The translations under genes and the position numbers were made by a program. 22,426 nucleotides of DNA, taken from the NCBI GenBank assembly GCA_020072925.1, contig JAIQGA010000056.1:1-22426 (forward strand), given 5' to 3'. The notes below the pieces were generated by a model, which was not told the DNA's origin, ran no database searches, and saw only the letters and a program-made list of their open reading frames with translations. The stretch comes from Terriglobia bacterium. Its GTDB lineage: Bacteria; Acidobacteriota; Terriglobia; UBA7540. Of this stretch, positions 1-17,276 are shown piece by piece. Within the stretch, counting starts at the first letter, position 1, and every line of letters starts with the position of its first letter.

Positions 1-370
1 TGCGCCGAGGGCGACATGCAGGAAGGCATCGCGACCGCTGGACGATTGCGTCTTGATGCTTTTCGAAAACAGACACCTCGCGAGGACTGGGCTAAGGTCG
101 CCTGGGAACACAACCCCTCAAAATACGTGGCGAAACAATTTCAATCTCCAAAAAGGTGTTGGCTGTTACGCTCCGCCCCAGGACTTGAGCAGTCGTGCCT
201 TCCTCAATCAACCGCGGACTCAATGTAGATATCTCGAACCGGCCGAACCAGGCCAGCTAGCTCGCGCGACCTGCCGATTGTCGAGCACTGCAGCGAGGTA
301 CAGAAACGAACAGCACCGCAAATGGCTGAGGATTGATCCGACCGAAGGCGGGTACGCAGTCGTCGACCTG

Positions 371-1126
371 ATGAACATCGCGAATTTTGCTCCGTATGTG
401 GCTCCCGGCGGAATGAGGATACCCGTCGTCCCTTTAGTTGTGGCACTCTACCACGACTTTAACTCTGGCTTTAGCCTCGCCAATCGTGCAGAGGTTGACA
501 TCCCGGATTTTGGGTCAGACTTCAACTTCTCGCCTGAAGAGCTGGCCCAGTATATCGATGATGAGCCGACAAATCCGCATAACCAGACCTTAGCAGAATT
601 CGGCCAGGGTATTACCTGGACCCGCACGGCAGCCTTACGGCGAACTATACTTCGGCGAGCAGCGGCCATCCGAGGTCGTGCGCGGACGCTCGAGGGTGGC
701 CGTCGTGCTCCCTTGCTGACAGGCACCCCCGCGACACCGCCTGGAGTCAATACGGGTTGGGAGGCGGAACAGTTCGTTGCGCAAGCTATGCGGTCCGCCG
801 GATGGACTGTCTTCGACGTTTCCAGGCAAAGGCTCGGTTACGACTTGATCGCACAAAAAGGACGGGCGACAAAATACGTCGACGCCAAGAGCTCGCTAGG
901 GGTATGCAGCCCGACGCTCACTTCACGCGAATGGCAACAAGCAACGGCGCATGGCGACAACTATGTGCTCGCAGTTCTCGAAAACTTTAACCCTACCGGG
1001 GAGAATATGATCTTGTGGGTGCCAAACCCTGCGACGAACTGCCTTGCTCACGAGTCCACAACAGTTCAGCATTCCATTTCCCGCAGGTCTTGGCTGCTTG
1101 CGCTCGTCCCGTTGGATGACGTCTAG
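371..1126 (+). CDS. DUF3883-domain protein. The true start is uncertain: the ORF is open from 53, but the N-terminal 100 aa are not protein-like.
   Basis: The C-terminal ~120 aa (GWEAEQFVAQAMRSAGWTVFDV..GYDLIAQKG..KYVDAKSS..LTSREWQQA..GDNYVLAVLEN) match the DUF3883 restriction-endonuclease-like signature. ATG at 371 is the first in-frame ATG before protein-like sequence. A frame-1 ORF running from the window edge to 228 suggests a frame change. Confidence 0.5.
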   Translation: MNIANFAPYVAPGGMRIPVVPLVVALYHDFNSGFSLANRAEVDIPDFGSDFNFSPEELAQYIDDEPTNPHNQTLAEFGQGITWTRTAALRRTILRRAAAIRGRARTLEGGRRAPLLTGTPATPPGVNTGWEAEQFVAQAMRSAGWTVFDVSRQRLGYDLIAQKGRATKYVDAKSSLGVCSPTLTSREWQQATAHGDNYVLAVLENFNPTGENMILWVPNPATNCLAHESTTVQHSISRRSWLLALVPLDDV

Positions 1127-4199: not shown

Positions 4200-4544
4200 C
4201 TAATCTTCCAAATCGGGCTCACGCAGAAGATTGCCATCGCCGCTGCCATTCTTCGAGTCCGCTTCTTTATATATGTAACGAATGCAGGATTTCATGATGA
4301 GGAGGTTGGGCTCGTGGGCGCGGTGCACCTTGATGCAGTGCTTGTCGTACCACTCGATCACCCCGTGGATGATCTCACCTTGGTCGAGCACTACCACCAC
4401 AGGCGTGCGCGCTTGCATCTGCTTCAGGTAATAAAAATTTTCCGCGTTAGTCTGTTCCGGAGGTGTGGGCTTCTTCCGTTGCACGCGCGTGCCAAGTTGG
4501 TCCTGGACCTCAGACAGTGACGGACGGATAAGTCTTCGGTTCAT
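4200..4544 (-). CDS. Sm-like / Hfq-like RNA-binding protein with N- and C-terminal extensions
   Basis: The core FYYLKQMQARTPVVVVLDQGEIIHGVIEWYDKHCIKV..LLIMKSCIRYIY aligns with the Hfq Sm1/Sm2 pattern (PV.IYL.NG..L.G.IESFD.F.ILL...Q.VYKHAIS). A strong SD AAGGAG lies 9 nt upstream of ATG 4544. Confidence 0.5.
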   Translation of the reverse strand: MNRRLIRPSLSEVQDQLGTRVQRKKPTPPEQTNAENFYYLKQMQARTPVVVVLDQGEIIHGVIEWYDKHCIKVHRAHEPNLLIMKSCIRYIYKEADSKNGSGDGNLLREPDLED

Positions 4545-4918
4545 TGTCGTTTACTCCTTAGGCCCGCTCTTGCGGGCTGAACGATGGGAGTCTCGTGGCC
4601 CTTGAAACCGCGAGTGATGCCGCCACTTACGTAGATGATATGAGAGGCCTGCCGGTTTCCTAAAGGCCCGCACAAAATTCAGATTAAGGAAAACAGCCGC
4701 GAATAGATGAATGTTAACACAGCCTCCTGGAGTCCGCAACGGGTTTCTCCTGTCTCCAGCCCGCCCATACGAGGAGACGTTCGCGAACCGGCCTTACTGC
4801 TCGTCAATTCCTGGGTTACGGACGTTCCTGTACGAGAAGGCCTGTGGGTACGCCGTGGCAGTGTGATTGACGGGGATTTTTCGTTCCTCGAGCGGCGGTC
4901 GGACGCTCCCGGGTTCGG

Positions 4919-6019
4919 TCAACCGGTCTGGGTCAGAGTCGATTTTCTTCCCGTGACGACGTCAATACCGAGCTCTTCGAACCCAAGTTGTTGGTTGACG
5001 TTGCGGATCTGGAGGCGGTAGGCCCGGTCCAGCCCTGCTTTCAGGCATTCCAAGTCCTCCAGGCTTGAGCCGGCTGCCCAAGTTTTGAGGCGGGCAACAA
5101 GGTCGACATTCATGACTTCTTTGTCTCCGCCTGGTTCGCGAAGCTGGAGCACATCGCGGAGCAGCGAAAAGCCGATTCGCAGCGTGCGATCGAAATCCTC
5201 GCGATTCTCCGCCAGCGCCTTGGCGGCATCAAACAACGATGACCAAGGCGCCGGGTCGCGGCCCCCCGGCGCCACGCGAAGCACGCTCTCAAGAAAATCC
5301 AGCCAGGGTTGCCGGCGGCGCTGGTAATCGGCCAGGTCAAAGGCCTTCGCCTGCGCCACGCTCCCGGCGGCAACGCGCGCCGCCAGCGCCTGCTGGGGCT
5401 TCGTCAAGCGCTTGTCCTGGGCCAGCAGCGCCAGAATCGATCCCTCATCGACAGGCTGAAATGCCAGGCGGAAGCATCGCGAACGAATGGTGGGCCGCAA
5501 TTCGTAGGCATTGGGGCAAACCAGGATCAGTGTCGTGGTGTCGGGAGGTTCCTCGAGCACCTTGAGTAGCACGTCGATGGCCTGCCAATGGATGGCCTGC
5601 GCGTCGTCCACAATGAAGACCCGTCGGGGAAACTCGAAGGGGCAGGTGTAGGCGACGTTCCGAAGCTGGCGGATTTGCTCCGTCAGGATGTAGCTGGTGA
5701 TCGGCTCGATCAGTTGCAGATCGAAGTAGACCAGGCCTTCGACTCGTCGGGCCGCCTCTTTGATCTCGCGGCGGCGGGCGAGGTCCTCGCGCCCGAGGGC
5801 GATCATCTCTTCCGCCTTGCGGCACCGCCGGCACTCGCCGCAGAAATCGCCCTGATTCTTCTCGCACACCAGTCCTTTCGCCAGCATCATCGCCAGCGTC
5901 TTCTTTCCTACGCCGTCCGGGCCTGCAAAAAGCATGGCGCCGGGAATCCGCCCGCTTCTCAGGATTTTGCGGACCGTCGCCACTGCGCTCGCATTGCCGA
6001 TAAAAGAATCGAAGCCCAT
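4919..6019 (-). CDS. holB: DNA polymerase III delta' subunit (clamp-loader AAA+ protein)
   Basis: Walker-A-like GPDGVGKKT, zinc module CxxGxCxxCRxCRK, the SRC motif (TIRSRCFRL), and ~365 aa length. It lies immediately downstream of tmk, as in many bacteria. The ORF extends to 6106, but only through the heptamer repeat array; start chosen at MGFDSF (6019). Confidence 0.85.
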   Translation of the reverse strand: MGFDSFIGNASAVATVRKILRSGRIPGAMLFAGPDGVGKKTLAMMLAKGLVCEKNQGDFCGECRRCRKAEEMIALGREDLARRREIKEAARRVEGLVYFDLQLIEPITSYILTEQIRQLRNVAYTCPFEFPRRVFIVDDAQAIHWQAIDVLLKVLEEPPDTTTLILVCPNAYELRPTIRSRCFRLAFQPVDEGSILALLAQDKRLTKPQQALAARVAAGSVAQAKAFDLADYQRRRQPWLDFLESVLRVAPGGRDPAPWSSLFDAAKALAENREDFDRTLRIGFSLLRDVLQLREPGGDKEVMNVDLVARLKTWAAGSSLEDLECLKAGLDRAYRLQIRNVNQQLGFEELGIDVVTGRKSTLTQTG

Positions 6020-6027
6020 AACCAGCT

Positions 6028-6192
6028 GAATCGGGAGTCGGGAGTCGGGAGTCGGGAGTCGGGAGTCGGGAGTCGGAAGTGGGAAGCGGGAAGTAAGTGA
6101 AGACAAAGCCCGGCCATCCCGGGGCGAATCGGTTGGCGGTTCTTGCCTACCTACTACCTACTTGTTGCCCCCCGACTTCCTACTTCCGATTC
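6028..6192. repeat. Heptamer tandem array (GGGAGTC x6 at 6033-6074, then degenerate GGGAAGn copies) forming an imperfect inverted repeat with 6147-6192 (CCGACTTCCTACTTCCGATTC).
   Basis: Direct reading of the sequence. The reverse complement of the right arm, GAATCGGAAGTAGGAAGTCGG, matches the left arm GAATCGGGAGTCGGGAGTCGG at 18 of 21 positions. It sits between tmk and holB. Confidence 0.85.
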
Positions 6193-6834
6193 TCTTTCCA
6201 AGAAGTCGTCCACCAGCCTCCGAATTTCCGCCTGGACCTCCGCGATGGGCCGGTCCGCGCGTACCACCTTGACGCGGCTTGGTTCCTGCCGCGCGATGGC
6301 CAGATACCCGGCGCGAACGCGTGCGTGGAATTGTCGACCCTGCGCTTCAAAGCGCCCGCGCCGGGAGTTTCGGCGGGTCTCGCGACCCTGCGCTCTCGCC
6401 AGGGCTATCCGCGGGTCCAGGTCGAGCACGATGGTCAAGTCAGGCTGAGTATCTCCACAAACAATCTGGTCGAACGCCCGCACCGTCTCTACCCCCAGCT
6501 TCCGCCCGTAGCCTTGGTAGGCGAGTGATGCATCATTATACCGGTCGCTGACCACCGTTTCGCCACGGCCGAGGGAGGGCCGGACCACTTCTTCAAGATG
6601 CTGCGCGCGCGCCGCGTAGATTAGCGCCAGCTCCGCCATAGGCGCCAATCGCTTAGTTGACAAATCCAGCAGGATTCCGCGAATGCGCTCTCCGACGCGA
6701 GTCCCGCCGGGCTCGCGCGTGGCTCGCAAGCGGTGGCCGAGTTTGCGCAGGTATTGGACCAGCAGGCGATGCTGCGTGCTCTTGCCTGTTCCGTCGATGC
6801 CCTCGAGCGTGATGAAAAGGCCGGGCTGTTTCAA
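6154..6834 (-). CDS. tmk: Thymidylate kinase
   Basis: N-terminal FITLEGIDGTGKST P-loop, DRY motif region (VVSDRY), and 226 aa length. The ORF opens at TTG 6834; no in-frame ATG upstream. The last ~12 codons lie in the repeat arm. Confidence 0.9.
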   Translation of the reverse strand: MKQPGLFITLEGIDGTGKSTQHRLLVQYLRKLGHRLRATREPGGTRVGERIRGILLDLSTKRLAPMAELALIYAARAQHLEEVVRPSLGRGETVVSDRYNDASLAYQGYGRKLGVETVRAFDQIVCGDTQPDLTIVLDLDPRIALARAQGRETRRNSRRGRFEAQGRQFHARVRAGYLAIARQEPSRVKVVRADRPIAEVQAEIRRLVDDFLERESEVGSRGATSR

Positions 6835-6842
6835 ATGGTTAT

Positions 6843-6941
6843 CCGTTGTCCGTGGTTCGTTGTCAGTTGTTTCCCGACATCCCTCACGTGGCCCAAGTGG
6901 TTCCTCCGCGCAACGAACAACTGGCGACGGACTACGGACGG
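6843..6941. repeat. Imperfect palindromic element built of heptamer units (CCGTTGT CCGTGGT TCGTTGT CAGTTGT ... AACAACTG GCGACGG ACTACGG ACGG).
   Basis: 8-bp perfect CAGTTGTT/AACAACTG core plus degenerate flanking arms. Its left arm begins 9 nt beyond the tmk TTG start codon (6834), in the divergent tmk/yggS intergenic region. Confidence 0.6.
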
Positions 6942-7032
6942 TCGAGGAATCCTAGCATTGCACAGCGCGAAATAACAAGGCGCCAGCAATCATGCCAACG
7001 AATGGTAGAATGTCCCGACCCGCGGAAATGCT

Positions 7033-7725
7033 ATGGTCAACATCCCGGAGAACGTCGCGCGCGTGCAGGAACGAATCGCCGTGGCGTGCCGCCGCAGCGG
7101 GCGGCGCGTGGAGGACGTGAGGCTGGTCGCCATTTCGAAGACTATGCCTTGTGAAGCCATTCGCGCGGGCTACGAGGCGGGACTGCGCGAATTCGGCGAG
7201 AACCGCGTTCAGGAAGCCAAGGCCAAGCGGCCCGCCCTGTCCGATCTGACAGCCACCTGGCACCTCGTCGGTCATCTCCAGACCAACAAGGCCAAGCCGG
7301 CGCGGGAATTGTTCCATTGGGTTCATTCCGTGGATTCACTGCGGCTGGCGGAGAAGCTTGCGCAGGCCGCGCCATGCAGTTCGGATCGCTTGCCGGTACT
7401 CCTGGAGGTCAACCTGGGCGAGGAGACCACCAAATCGGGTGTCCGCACTGAAGAGATTGCGGCGCTTGCCGAACGGGTCGCGCAGTTTGAAACCTTGGAA
7501 CTGCGCGGCCTGATGGTGATTCCGCCCTTCTTCGAAGACCCTGAGAAAGGCCGCCCGTACTTTCGGCAGCTGCGTGAGTTGGCGAAGGAAATTGAATCGC
7601 GCAAGTTGCCTAACGTTTCCATGCGGGAACTCTCCATGGGCATGAGCCACGATTTCGAGGTGGCCATCGAAGAAGGGGCCACGATCGTCCGCGTGGGGAC
7701 GGCAATCTTTGGGCCGAGGCAATAA
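7033..7725 (+). CDS. yggS: YggS-family pyridoxal-phosphate homeostasis protein (COG0325/PLPHP)
   Basis: 230 aa; ISKT lysine region (VRLVAISKTMP), HLVGHLQTNKAK, the ELRGLM block and C-terminal RVGTAIFG are hallmarks of the family. Confidence 0.9.
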   Translation: MVNIPENVARVQERIAVACRRSGRRVEDVRLVAISKTMPCEAIRAGYEAGLREFGENRVQEAKAKRPALSDLTATWHLVGHLQTNKAKPARELFHWVHSVDSLRLAEKLAQAAPCSSDRLPVLLEVNLGEETTKSGVRTEEIAALAERVAQFETLELRGLMVIPPFFEDPEKGRPYFRQLRELAKEIESRKLPNVSMRELSMGMSHDFEVAIEEGATIVRVGTAIFGPRQ

Positions 7726-7726
7726 A

Positions 7727-7903
7727 TGAAGGCTGAAGTCAGGAGCCAGAACTCAGAAGTCAGAAGGATGAAGGATGAAGGACACTCCCCCGGCGGCGCT
7801 ATTTGATTGCCGGGATGTGGCGTCAACTGGCATCGGACAACTGACAACTGACGACTGACGACTGAGCACTGACTTCTGACCCCGGACTCCGGACCACGGA
7901 CTT
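7727..7903. repeat. Composite repeat: 10-bp perfect inverted repeat CAGAAGTCAG (7754-7763) / CTGACTTCTG (7869-7878) plus several heptamer tandem arrays (GATGAAG x3 at 7766-7782; nACTGAC x5 at 7834-7868; CCGGACn x3 at 7882-7901).
   Basis: Direct reading. It occupies the whole yggS-yggU intergenic space. Confidence 0.8.
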
Positions 7904-7906
7904 CTT

Positions 7907-8224
7907 ATGACTCCGAGCTTTCAACTCGACCGCGAGAACGTTTCCTTCTGGCTGAAAGTGAAACCGCGGTCGGCGCGGGAACGCCTGGGAGTCGACGCGG
8001 CCGGGGAATTACGCTTGGAGTTGCACGCCCCGCCCACGGAAGGGCAGGCCAACGAAGCCTGCGTGCAGTTTTTCGCCCGCGCGCTGCGGCTGCCCCAGGC
8101 GTGCGTGGTCATCCTTTCCGGTTCGAAGTCACGTCGCAAGCTTATCCGAATTACCGGCCACTCGGCCCAGGAAACCGTTGCACAGTTGAAGCGATTGTTG
8201 CAGTCTCAACCGGCAAGTAGGTAA
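7907..8224 (+). CDS. yggU: DUF167 (YggU/UPF0235) family protein
   Basis: 105 aa; the NEACVQFFARAL block and overall length fit DUF167. It is positioned downstream of yggS, as in the E. coli yggS-yggT-yggU cluster. Confidence 0.75.
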   Translation: MTPSFQLDRENVSFWLKVKPRSARERLGVDAAGELRLELHAPPTEGQANEACVQFFARALRLPQACVVILSGSKSRRKLIRITGHSAQETVAQLKRLLQSQPASR

Positions 8225-8228
8225 GAGA

Positions 8229-8375
8229 ATCGGGCCATCGGGTCATTGATCCATTGAGTGATTTGGTGATTGGGTGATTGAAAAAACAAATCCGAATCGT
8301 GGCGCGTCCATTCAATCACCAAATCATACAATCACTCAATCACCCAATGGCCAAGTGGCCCGATCACCTAATCGC
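8229..8375. repeat. Large palindromic element: ~55-bp arms built on GTGATTG/CAATCAC units, separated by a ~27-nt spacer.
   Basis: Left arm 8229-8283 and the reverse complement of 8311-8375 share GTGATTTGGTGATTG and GGGCCA..GGG segments. It is homologous to the element at 12105-12236. Confidence 0.85.
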
Positions 8376-8413
8376 CAGATCATTCGACTCGTCACTATAG
8401 CGCGGAGCCGACA

Positions 8414-9703
8414 TTGAGTTTCCGCCAACGCCTCGAGGAAATCCGCACGGGATTCAAGCCTGCCTTCTGGGTGGCGAACACCACGGAACTGTTCGAGCGC
8501 CTGTCGTACTATGGGGCAAGCGCGGTCCTGGCCATTTATCTGAGCGAACAACTGCACTTTTCCAAAGAGCTTACAGGCTGGATGATTGGAATTTTCGGCT
8601 TTGTGGTCTGGTTCCTGCCCGTGCTGGGGGGAACGCTAGCGGACCGCTTCGGCTTCCGGCGCGCGCTGATGTTCGCTTATCTGGTGATGACCGTCGGCTA
8701 TTTCCTGTTGGGTTCGCTCTCGGCGCCGTGGATGGTTGCGGCGCGCCAGGCTCTGACCGACAAATGGCTCGTATTCGCGATTCTCATGATCCCCGCGCTG
8801 GGACCGGCGGTGGTCAAACCCTGCGTGGCGGGCACGACGGCGCGCGCCTCCACGGAGAATGTCCGCTCCATCGGTTATTCGATTTACTACACGCTGGTGA
8901 ATGTCGGCGGCACGCTGGGGCCGGTCATGGCCTGGCTGGTGCGGAAAAAACTAGGGTGGGGCATTGAAAATGTCTTCCGCGTTTCCGCCCTCAGCGTTTT
9001 CCTGATGTTTTGTGTGACGCTGCTCTTCTTTCGCGAGCCGACCCAATCCGGCGAACAGAAAGTGGCCAGCGTCGCGGCCGCCATCAAGAACATGTTTGTA
9101 GTGCTGGGCAACTTCCGTTTCGTCCTGTTCCTGTTGATCTTTTCGAGTTTCTACGTGGTCTTCTGGCAGGAATTCATTTCCGCCCCGCTGTTTTTGCGCG
9201 GCTACGTCGATCCCAACGCCAACGCTGACCTGTTGCTTTCGATTGACGCGCTGACGGTGATCTGCTTCCAGATTTTGGTCAGCTATCTGACCCGCAAGAT
9301 TCCCGCGTTTTCGGCGATGACGCTGGGATTGCTGATTTCAAGCCTCTCGTGGCTGATTCTGGCCCTTTATCCCACGACAGTGGGCCTGATCGGGTCGCTT
9401 GTGGTCCTGGCACTCGGCGAGATCACCCAGTCCGCGCGCTACTATGAATACGTCTCGCGGCTGGCGCCGCCGGGCCAGCAGGGGCTCTACATGGGCTACG
9501 CGTTTCTGCCCATTGCCATCGGTTACTTCATCGCCGGGCCACTGGGCGGTTACCTGCTGCACTATTTTGGCGATATCCTGCGCCGGCCGCAGCAGATGTG
9601 GTGGGTGGTCACCGCGGTGGGGATTGTCGGCACGGTGTTGATGCTGGCGTACGACAGAGTTTTTCGGCCGGGCGGAGAAAAGGGATTAGGGATCAGGGGT
9701 TAG
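8414..9703 (+). CDS. Proton-dependent oligopeptide transporter (PTR2/POT family, MFS)
   Basis: The N-terminal ELFERLSYYG signature of POT transporters; ~12 predicted TM helices; TTG start with GCGGAG SD-like sequence upstream. Confidence 0.85.
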   Translation: MSFRQRLEEIRTGFKPAFWVANTTELFERLSYYGASAVLAIYLSEQLHFSKELTGWMIGIFGFVVWFLPVLGGTLADRFGFRRALMFAYLVMTVGYFLLGSLSAPWMVAARQALTDKWLVFAILMIPALGPAVVKPCVAGTTARASTENVRSIGYSIYYTLVNVGGTLGPVMAWLVRKKLGWGIENVFRVSALSVFLMFCVTLLFFREPTQSGEQKVASVAAAIKNMFVVLGNFRFVLFLLIFSSFYVVFWQEFISAPLFLRGYVDPNANADLLLSIDALTVICFQILVSYLTRKIPAFSAMTLGLLISSLSWLILALYPTTVGLIGSLVVLALGEITQSARYYEYVSRLAPPGQQGLYMGYAFLPIAIGYFIAGPLGGYLLHYFGDILRRPQQMWWVVTAVGIVGTVLMLAYDRVFRPGGEKGLGIRG

Positions 9704-9713
9704 GGATTAGCAG
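9682..9713. repeat. Short telomere-like tandem repeat GGGATTAG GGATCAG GGGTTAG GGATTAG overlapping the stop codon of the POT gene.
   Basis: Direct reading; about four 7-8-nt units containing TTAGGG. Confidence 0.6.
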
Positions 9714-12106: not shown

Positions 12107-12236
12107 TCCATCGGGTGATTGAGTGATCGGGTGACTCAGCGATTGAAGAGGCGGAGCAGGCGGGTTTGCTTTTTCAATCGCAAAATCACACAATCACCAA
12201 ATCACTCAATGAACAAATGATCCAATTATCCTGATG
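12105..12236. repeat. Palindromic GTGATTG-unit element, second copy of the family seen at 8229-8375.
   Basis: The reverse complement of the right arm (GGATCATTTGTTCATTGAGTGATTTGGTGATTGTGTGATT) closely matches the left arm of the 8229 element (TGATCCATTGAGTGATTTGGTGATTGGGTGATT). Confidence 0.85.
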
Positions 12237-16716: not shown

Positions 16717-17276
16717 ATGTTTCTCGATCACGCTCCGCGTTCCCACGAATAGTGATGACGCCTCGGATCGCCACTCCTCCCTTTGCCGACAAGCAATCTT
16801 AACTTGGGTGTCCTCAACCCCGGGCGAGAGGTTTGGGCGTGCCGACGCCGGGGAGGGTGGCTTGCGCTGCGAGGGCCTTCGCGACCGGAAGCCTTTCGGG
16901 TTCGATTAAGTAACGCGGCGGCTTCAGCACCGGGATCTCAAAATAGTTCTCGAGGACGATGCGCGCCGGAACTTGCAGGATATCCGGTCCGCAGTCACCG
17001 GCCGCGACACTCCCGCTCAGACAGCGGAACCGCCCGAATAAGCGCGCCGCTGCGCCTGAAGCCCAACCTTATCATCGGCGGCTATGGGCACTTCACCTAT
17101 CACTTCGATTACTGGGACCGACGGGAAGCAATTGTGACACTCACACCCTGGTGCCGAAGCTCCCCGAATTGAGGTGGTTACTGTAGCGCCGGCTCCGTGA
17201 CCCGCCCGAGTTTTGTATCCCCTCAGTTCAGAGGTTTTCGCAAGGAATCTGTTTCAGGATGATCGAAAGTCATGCT

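Follow-up and report, generated by a model that had tools for sequence, protein, structure and literature searches.

Heptanucleotide Repeats in Bacteria and the tmk-holB Spacer

Tandem heptanucleotide arrays with the consensus GGGNATC or GGGGA(C/T)T are known from Xanthomonas campestris, X. axonopodis and Nostoc PCC 7120 (Rehm et al. 2015, PLoS One 10:e0144275; PMC4692102). They consist of 2-26 units, are intergenic in ~90% of the cases and lie mostly between open reading frames (ORFs) that are aligned, with the G-rich strand near a stop codon on the coding strand or near a start codon on the non-coding strand. Their positions are conserved between relatives and their length and sequence vary; the 70-75 convergent array pairs per Xanthomonas genome could form stem-loops or cruciforms, and no function has been established for them (PMC4692102). 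The element described here was found in a 22,426-nt stretch of DNA from a Terriglobia bacterium (contig JAIQGA010000056.1, hereafter the window). Six perfect GGGAGTC units form part of one arm of an imperfect palindrome at positions 6028-6192, between the genes for thymidylate kinase (tmk) and the delta' subunit of DNA polymerase III (holB). It is probably a palindromic heptanucleotide simple sequence repeat, one of very many in the intergenic spacers of this soil/sediment Terriglobia clade, where such hairpins may be seen as resembling the known but unexplained heptamer repeats of Xanthomonas and Nostoc, their nearest counterpart among the known systems.

Several traits are shared with those repeats. 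The focal array contains at least two head-to-tail heptamers (six perfect and about three degenerate) and at least four G3 tracts with 1-7-nt loops (motif match at 6033-6070, the G-quadruplex being predicted only). It is placed between aligned ORFs, its G-rich + strand lying 8-14 nt from the holB ATG on the non-coding strand, and its position is conserved between relatives with variable length and sequence. In contrast, the GGGAGTC unit is off both consensus sequences, with a G instead of an A at position 5. The repeats of Rehm et al. have one genome-wide consensus unit and a proposed G-quadruplex, whereas the Terriglobia unit differs from spacer to spacer, is in many cases unable to form a quadruplex and is swapped between relatives at orthologous spacers. 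Inverted pairing is also much commoner in Terriglobia, and the arrays are denser (3-9 per 10 kb in the sampled loci, compared to 186 in the whole X. campestris genome, 84 on the plus and 102 on the minus strand; PMC4692102). Finally, the phylum is a different one, Acidobacteriota.

Heptanucleotides are also the most abundant class among the long simple sequence repeats (LSSRs) with 5-11-nt units (Mrazek et al. 2007, as summarized in PMC4679880 and PMC4692102), for which an origin by polymerase slippage, tied to the DNA length that the polymerase's active site accommodates, was proposed. The over-representation of heptamers in non-host-adapted bacteria is a likeness to the present case; systematic inverted pairing and unit turnover at orthologous positions are absent from what these two summaries relate. 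The direct TAACTGA repeats of marine Beggiatoaceae, some cyanobacteria and Bacteroidetes (MacGregor 2015; PMC4679880) are likewise intergenic heptamers, most of them ending a few nucleotides upstream of a start codon and some overlapping the end of the upstream ORF. They have, however, a single fixed unit and are almost always direct, with one inverted case in the BOGUAY genome (orange Guaymas 'Maribeggiatoa'). Their orientation with the downstream gene led to the proposal of a single-strand RNA-binding regulator, whereas the Terriglobia arrays are paired, variable and without an orientation rule. Heptamers called STRR were reportedly described in cyanobacteria by Mazel and colleagues in 1990.

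Repetitive extragenic palindromic (REP) sequences, together with BIMEs and REPINs, are similar in being abundant intergenic imperfect palindromes, often between co-transcribed genes, that persist at orthologous positions; roles in mRNA stability, termination and DNA topology have been proposed for them. Throughout a genome, REPs follow one consensus of 20-40 nt with a GTAG or CGTC tag, and a cognate Y1 transposase (RAYT) goes with them. The Terriglobia hairpins, in contrast, have no shared consensus, and their arms are 7-nt periodic and vary by unit slippage. In the literature on Acidobacteria and Terriglobia concerning heptamers, hairpins or REPs, no description of such structures was found. 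Heptamer hairpins are not mentioned in PMC12699852, PMC4060949, PMC6749651 and PMC12306157, and no paper naming the Acidobacteria as a heptamer-rich group was found.

Organization of the Palindromic Array

The spacer and the two genes that border it contain the following features:

4919-6019, minus strand: holB (DNA polymerase III delta'), with ATG at 6019-6017 (MGFDSF...); PF13177, E = 5e-36, on the ORF 4919-6106
6020-6106, minus strand: in-frame upstream ORF extension from TTG 6106, adding MSSLTSRFPLPTPDSRLPTPDSRLPIQLV; judged untranslated
6028-6097, no strand assigned: palindrome's left arm, which on the gene strand is the 3' arm; outer end 8 nt upstream of the holB ATG (6019)
6033-6074, plus strand: perfect GGGAGTC units, from repeat finding, probe search and G-quadruplex motif scan
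6075-6097, plus strand: degenerate, older units GGAAGTG, GGAAGCG and GGAAGTA(AG); Tandem Repeats Finder (TRF) row 6071-6094
6098-6141, no strand assigned: central spacer of the palindrome, containing a GC stem-loop at 6109-6123 (minus strand) and then CTTTGTCTTC
6142-6192, no strand assigned: right arm, the 5' arm on the gene strand, with degenerate heptamers CTACCTA (2.3 copies), CCGACTT and CCTACTT; overlaps the 3' end of tmk
6154-6834, minus strand: tmk (thymidylate kinase); PF02223 Thymidylate_kin, E = 5e-49; stop codon at 6154-6156

The six GGGAGTC copies, the degenerate copies and the imperfect palindrome of an earlier note on this DNA were recovered, with the same coordinates and sequence, by TRF, inverted-repeat search and alignment. 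The array has a period of 7 with 7.9 copies, 93% matches and a TRF score of 94; 3' of the six error-free units it continues through the degenerate ones to ~6097. A two-unit GGGAGTC probe allowing up to two mismatches gave six matches at the focal array, compared to 0.23 in shuffles of the 22.4-kb window, and no further match elsewhere in the window. In 660 kb of related sequence, GGGAGTC arrays were found only on contigs of the same organism, apart from an isolated two-unit match in locus L070 (345-358). The G-rich strand is the + strand, which is the template for tmk and holB, and the mRNA would read (GACUCCC)6.

The outermost inverted repeat pairs 6028-6049 with 6171-6192 (22 nt, 86% complementary), and a gapped alignment of the arms (6049-6097 with 6142-6192) contains 49 pairs, 35 of them Watson-Crick. 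In register, the Watson-Crick fraction is 0.71, the best register being chosen by construction, and it falls to 0.55-0.60 after shifts of ±7 or ±14 nt; the arms can pair in several registers. Folding of the palindrome, which the earlier note had proposed as a check, gave a divided answer: the pairing arms exist, but the single hairpin that they form is weak (z = -1.15 for the gene strand and -2.27 for the opposite one, with -0.97 for folding as DNA). No other hairpin of the window is as decayed, as asymmetric or as weakly folding, and the focal arms are now unequal, with ~10 units on the left and ~6 on the right. Recent expansion of the left arm without its partner would account for both the weak fold and the longer left arm, and the six-copy run is best read as such a one-arm expansion over older degenerate GGAAGTN units.

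The same six-copy array is present, identical, in an independent metagenome assembly (L001), and four short-read contigs of the same organism (L002-L005, Logan/ENA) all end inside or just before it. The array is therefore not an artefact of a single assembly. Samples with this exact locus are ERZ27247940, ERZ27247951, SRR15677233, SRR29366193 and SRR29366202.

Heptamer Palindromes in Related Terriglobia

Relatives were obtained by two scans. The HolB genome scan yielded 16 loci with 58-68% identity, all from Acidobacteriota/Terriglobia metagenome-assembled genomes or isolates, and the Tmk metagenome scan yielded 73 loci, of which L022-L081 are 59-79% identical and the rest are outgroups of lower identity. 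Most relatives carry a heptamer hairpin at the tmk-holB junction, each with a different unit. On the gene strand these units include CGAAACT/CGAAAAT, GGGATTC/GGGTTTC, TTAGGGG, GGGACTA, GGTGCTA (six copies), AGGGAAC (nine copies), TTCATCA, CAGTTNT and GAAGGTC, and the downstream arm is the complement of the upstream arm in each genome with a junction hairpin. A tight junction is confined to more distant relatives: in L061/62 the holB start motif lies 10 nt inside the aligned tmk end, so that the genes appear to overlap, and in L070 and L075-77 the tmk-holB spacer is short.

The earlier note had taken the palindrome for an insertion into a normally tight junction, but the hairpin is the normal state of the clade. 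Its presence in most relatives points to an old, clade-wide occupant that is typical of the lineage and not special to tmk-holB, rather than to a recent insertion. The neighbouring spacers of the relatives (tmk/yggS, yggS/DUF167 and DUF167/MFS) show the same hairpin behaviour. The spacer upstream of hfq contrasts with them, as its primary sequence is kept and arrays are absent. A purine-rich 5' arm with a pyrimidine-rich 3' arm at tmk-holB was considered as an orientation rule and rejected, since such a bias could be inherited by descent via transitions and the yggS-to-DUF167 hairpins show the opposite polarity.

A census of non-overlapping TRF arrays was made in 664 kb, comprising the window and L006-L081. 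Periods of 7, 14, 21 or 28 account for 198 of the 270 arrays. Intergenic DNA, which by our gene calls represents 18% of the sequence, contains the greater part of 151 of these 198 arrays (76%). An inverted partner, defined as an inverted 14-mer with at most two mismatches within 250 nt, was found near 83 heptamer-period arrays (42%), compared to nine (5%) with a null partner that was reversed without being complemented. The density of 3-9 arrays per 10 kb holds for most loci of the clade; there were none in the outgroup loci L082-L090 or in L013, L017, L019, L033, L048, L076 and L077. The earlier note had allowed for ordinary sequence drift if the genome held no similar arrays; such arrays are abundant nearby, with units other than GGGAGTC.

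A few unit families (CGAAACT, GTCCGTT and GTGACGA) recur in different spacers of the same genomes. Nested palindromes are present in L010 (6103-6266) and L015 (427-574), in the DUF167-to-MFS spacer, where outer GTGACGA/GTGACAA-family arms enclose a CGAAACT-family hairpin, as though one had arisen in, or been inserted into, the other's loop. An innermost gap of exactly 10 nt, seen in many CGAAACT-family hairpins of L007-L016, is present in 13 of 44 hairpins, many of them orthologous and of doubtful independence. The 10-nt loop was rejected as a defining feature, as it equals one unpaired extra heptamer plus a 3-nt GC-rich loop and many of the hairpins are orthologous.

Sister Hairpins in the Window

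At least seven imperfect palindromes, each of those listed having its own unit, occupy spacers of the window itself. Their arms are made of degenerate 7- or 8-mers in tandem, and several of them are much more stable in folding than shuffles. Besides the focal palindrome, the following arrays were recorded:

1183-1290, no strand assigned: TTCATCC heptamer array and inverted partner, convergent spacer; z = -3.34 (minus)
6842-6939, no strand assigned: CCGTTGT/CCGTGGT paired with ACGGACT/CAACTGG, in the divergent tmk/yggS spacer; z = -4.36 (plus) and -0.96 (minus)
7728-7904, no strand assigned: GAAGTCA/GAAGGAT paired with CTGACTT/GACTGAC, filling the yggS-to-DUF167 spacer; z = -3.04
8229-8380, no strand assigned: 8-nt units GGTGATTG paired with CAATCACC, in the DUF167-to-MFS spacer; z = -7.56
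9681-9710, plus strand: AGGGATT-type array of heptamers, at the MFS gene's 3' end; second site with a G-quadruplex motif, with only a short partner, GAATCCCC, downstream
12109-12219, no strand assigned: 8-nt units of the same family as 8229-8380 (GGTGATTG); z ~ -7 on both strands

Period 7 dominates the window, period 8 being the sole other clear signal, and the strong arrays sit at or between gene ends. The base of the 6842-6939 hairpin is ~8 nt from the tmk start, and the 7728-7904 hairpin stops 2 nt short of the DUF167 ATG at 7907. Together with those of the neighbouring spacers in relatives, the hairpins occupy co-oriented, divergent and convergent spacers alike.

Turnover of the Units

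Contigs that are 93-95% identical and gapless across 455 nt of tmk (L035/36/37 and L064/66) differ at the junction by exact 7-nt insertions or deletions. These affect either arm independently: between L036 and L037, one contig has one unit fewer in arm 1 and the other one fewer in arm 2, and L064 and L066 differ by one unit in arm 2. Such exact differences between near-identical sequences are direct evidence that whole-unit slipped-strand mispairing acts on the arms. Loops of 7 nt are too large for MutS-type mismatch repair. Each arm gains and loses whole units by slippage, and escape from this repair would let the process persist.

Slippage in either arm leaves to be explained that the arms remain complementary while the unit turns over completely between relatives. 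A strand-symmetric process at the DNA level could keep them alike: in single-stranded DNA, fold-back or intrastrand template switching on the hairpin would correct quasi-palindromes. We consider template switching the most economical cause of the complementarity, and purifying selection on mRNA pairing a less economical one. The hairpin persists in unconstrained sequence, filling the spacer up to ~6-8 nt before the next start codon, and it can enter the dispensable C-terminal end of the upstream gene. The tmk-holB transcript could then form a long imperfect stem reaching from the last tmk codons to 8 nt before the holB ATG. Such a stem could modulate holB initiation or mRNA processing, as a side effect and not as the reason for the element.

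Several points weigh against this account. Template switching is deduced from the pattern, which would equally follow from DNA-level selection for pairing (through a cruciform or a bound protein) or from weak selection acting on RNA. That hairpins persist at the same spacers over ~35% protein divergence is not an obvious expectation for neutral and unstable DNA. Among 25 junction hairpins, 17 have a slightly better minimum free energy (MFE) on the sense than on the antisense strand, the mean difference being 1.8 kcal/mol. In ~14 of the 25 relatives only 6-8 nt separate the end of the 3' arm from the holB ATG, with no Shine-Dalgarno motif, an arrangement that would fit a role in translation initiation or coupling. 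As to scope, ~20 kb were compared per genome, which makes 'genome-wide' an extrapolation; genes in relatives were called with our own crude codon-bias caller; and the counts are only partly independent, many of the loci compared being orthologous.

Pairing at the RNA or at the DNA Level

Selection on pairing in the transcript predicts that sense-strand transition mismatches are mostly G:U. In 44 non-identical heptamer hairpins between co-oriented genes, 75 sense G:U mismatches were counted against 87 A:C (binomial p = 0.39). In comparison, 27 non-heptamer hairpins from the same data show the usual trend (55 G:U and 38 A:C). The tmk-holB junction alone gave 48 G:U and 53 A:C, and a smaller, hand-summed count gave 61 and 67. 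In the focal hairpin three sense G:U mismatches stand against 8-9 A:C, and the antisense strand folds better. Nothing indicates selection on the mRNA pairing of the heptamer hairpins. As the mismatches carry no strand signature, a strand-symmetric process at the DNA level is favoured.

These counts bear most directly on the idea of a functional intercistronic mRNA hairpin that sets holB translation or the tmk:holB expression ratio, which we regard as possible but unlikely. In one variant, the stem would occlude the holB start and ribosomes finishing tmk would open it (translational coupling); the 8 nt from the hairpin to that start show no Shine-Dalgarno motif. In the other, it would be an RNase III site or an exonuclease barrier, in the manner of REP-like mRNA stabilisers. 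Both are consistent with the co-orientation of tmk and holB without a promoter-like site between them, with the translation of tmk 36 nt into the 5' arm and with the position of the hairpin, which is kept across the clade. The short distance from the 3' arm to the holB ATG, in the window as in the relatives counted above, and the better sense MFE point the same way. In addition, outgroups without the hairpin have the tmk stop 5-15 nt from the holB start, the classic layout for coupling. Beside the lack of a G:U bias, which in the focal hairpin is joined by a sense z-score of only -1.15, the geometry speaks against this function: the tmk stop may precede the hairpin or fall within either arm or the loop, which gives coupling no fixed layout, and the same hairpins occur in divergent and convergent spacers.

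A terminator was considered as well. The apical stem-loop of the palindrome, CCCGGGATGGCCGGG followed by CTTTGTCTTC (6109-6123, minus strand), is terminator-like with a poor U tract. A scan of 5700-7200 found two terminator-like sites, compared to 1.4 expected by chance, and no promoter-like site. A Rho-independent terminator was rejected, as the large stem is followed by CAGCUGGUUAUG and only the small apical stem, at chance frequency, has such a form. Rfam 15 gave no match at gathering thresholds in the whole window. In E-value mode (5900-8500), the only hit was mir-H1, at 28.6 bits against a threshold of 97 bits, which is spurious and reflects the hairpin shape.

The persistence of the hairpins at the same spacers also leads to a more far-reaching idea, that the heptamer palindromes are a lineage-defining and actively maintained class of non-coding element, and not passive debris of slippage; this, too, seems rather unlikely. 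If true, it would imply dedicated machinery, such as a protein that recognizes the heptamer periodicity or the shape of the hairpin whatever the sequence, or else a replication or repair activity peculiar to the lineage by which arrays are built and symmetrised. It could also imply a general function in cistron insulation, in the presentation of Shine-Dalgarno-less starts at the foot of a stem or in DNA topology. The patchy distribution of the arrays would then allow the responsible gene to be found by phylogenetic profiling.

G-Quadruplex and Mobile Element as Less Likely Explanations

The (GGGAGTC)6 run is a canonical G3N4 motif for a G-quadruplex (G4), and its regular expression matches only two sites in the window, 6033-6070 and 9682-9705. 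With G4 energies enabled in ViennaRNA, the isolated arm folds as a predicted G4 (-14.5 kcal/mol, compared to -10.0). It might thus be proposed that a template-strand G4 modulates transcription or replication through the junction, as for the GGGNATC repeats of Xanthomonas and Nostoc. The array, one of two such sites in 22 kb, obeys the rule of Rehm et al. 2015 (PMC4692102) in that its non-coding strand is the G-rich one and it lies no more than 50 bp upstream of an ORF, and the closest relatives also have G3 units (GGGATTC, GGGACTA and AGGGAAC). This explanation is nevertheless improbable. The junction units CGAAACT, TTCATCA, CAGTTNT and GAAGGTC of many relatives cannot form a G4, most sister hairpins of the window lack G3 tracts, and in the presence of the partner arm the duplex stem is far more stable (-80.6 versus -14.5 kcal/mol). 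It is therefore the periodicity and the palindromy that are conserved, and not the G-richness. The focal array may form a G4, but this is not what has been conserved.

A small non-autonomous mobile element inserted between tmk and holB is very improbable. Such an element would be of the miniature inverted-repeat transposable element (MITE), REP or REPIN type, mobilized perhaps by a Y1 (IS200/IS605-like) transposase. The intergenic hairpin form is suggestive of one, as are the unit families CGAAACT, GTCCGTT and GTGACGA that recur in other spacers and the nested hairpins of L010 and L015. Acidobacteria also encode tyrosine transposases associated with terminal inverted repeats (PMC3733652). The two 8-mer hairpins of the window (8229-8380 and 12109-12219), 3.8 kb apart, are 76% identical over their arms, but their loops are unrelated, and the likeness is insufficient to call transposition. 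More generally, hairpins of the same family have unrelated loops and flanks. The GGGAGTC unit is absent elsewhere in the window and in the 660 kb of relatives, bar the same-organism contigs and the two-unit match in L070. The window contains no transposase gene, and the orthologous position across the clade also speaks against a mobile element.

Membership in the known classes was rejected on similar grounds. For a MITE, terminal inverted repeats with a target-site duplication are lacking around 6028-6192, where the flanks CAGCT and TCTTT are not duplicated, and close relatives differ by whole 7-nt unit indels instead of the presence or absence of an element. For a REP or REPIN, no shared palindromic consensus of 20-40 nt was found in the 22 kb of this genome and the related loci, in which the sister hairpins differ in unit.

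Reading Frames of tmk and holB

According to the earlier note, the right arm encodes the last 12 residues of Tmk. This was borne out: residues 215-226 (ESEVGSRGATSR) are encoded by 6157-6192, the tmk frame running 36 nt into the arm. The matches of Tmk to relatives by tblastn end at residue 212-216, and the Pfam domains of Tmk and HolB end before, or start after, the repeat-encoded residues. Among ~50 relatives, the tails beyond the conserved ...FLAR motif are 2 to ~35 residues long and all different, each being read from the repeat of its own genome, which agrees with the suspicion that these residues are lineage-specific. No orthologue shows the same tail without the repeat, a case that would have spoken for drift. 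The tmk stop lies before arm 1 in eight relatives, in arm 1 in five, in the loop in four and in arm 2 in one. Although translated, the Tmk tail is incidental.

The early stop is missing from tmk in L028 and L047, where the frame continues across most of the hairpin and ends close to the 3' arm or within it. These two Tmk proteins thereby gain ~30-35 unrelated residues beyond the conserved end; their close relative L031 stops before the hairpin. Judging from such sequences, Tmk evidently can tolerate long arbitrary C-terminal tails.

The N-terminal extension of HolB fared differently. The ORF from TTG 6106 exists and would add PTPDSRLPTPDSRL, but all HolB orthologues start at the methionine of MGF(D/E)SF, which corresponds to ATG 6019. 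The gene caller on L001 likewise picks the equivalent ATG, giving a HolB of 366 aa, and 29 of 51 orthologues have an in-frame stop at most 13 codons upstream of the holB start. In view of these starts and the frequent upstream stops, the PTPDSRL extension is an ORF artefact made by the array. The overlap of the hairpin with the gene ends has thus produced both the arbitrary 12-residue Tmk tail and the spurious ORF upstream of holB. An adaptive coding repeat, existing to give Tmk and/or HolB peptide extensions, is hardly credible: the tmk ORF does enter the right arm by 12 codons and the TTG 6106 ORF would lengthen HolB, but the Tmk tails are unrelated in length and sequence, with stops placed arbitrarily relative to the hairpin, the HolB orthologues begin at the MGF methionine, most with in-frame stops just upstream, and no Pfam domain reaches the repeat-encoded residues.

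Other Features of the Window

Relatives conserve the sequence of the 375-nt spacer 4545-4918, which separates holB from an hfq-like gene (4200-4544, minus strand). A promoter-like TTGCG-N17-TACTAT is followed there by a leader of ~190 nt, also conserved, and the hfq-like gene is preceded by an AGGAG Shine-Dalgarno motif; a further conserved block, GGGCAACGAG...CCATCCA, lies upstream. No heptamer array and no Rfam match were found in this spacer, which may represent an autoregulatory hfq leader or an unannotated small RNA.

The ORF at 53-1126 (plus strand) encodes a NOV_C (NO VEIN C-terminal) domain; its codon usage is atypical for the window and it was rejected by the codon-bias caller. The ~560 nt at 16717-17276 have no called gene.

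Implications

For the annotation of these genomes, spurious N-terminal ORF extensions, as in holB, and arbitrary C-terminal tails, as in Tmk, should be expected by annotation pipelines, and the arrays break short-read metagenome assemblies. Across orthologous spacers, 7-nt periodicity, palindromy and position are conserved, and not the unit or its G-richness. This argues against the G4 as a general explanation, and the arm complementarity without an RNA-type wobble bias points to a process at the DNA level. The Terriglobia clade extends the phenomenon of heptamer repeats to the Acidobacteriota, at an unusually high local density. The single locus between tmk and holB is ordinary for its lineage; the clade as a whole lends itself well to comparative work on why heptamer repeats accumulate in bacteria.

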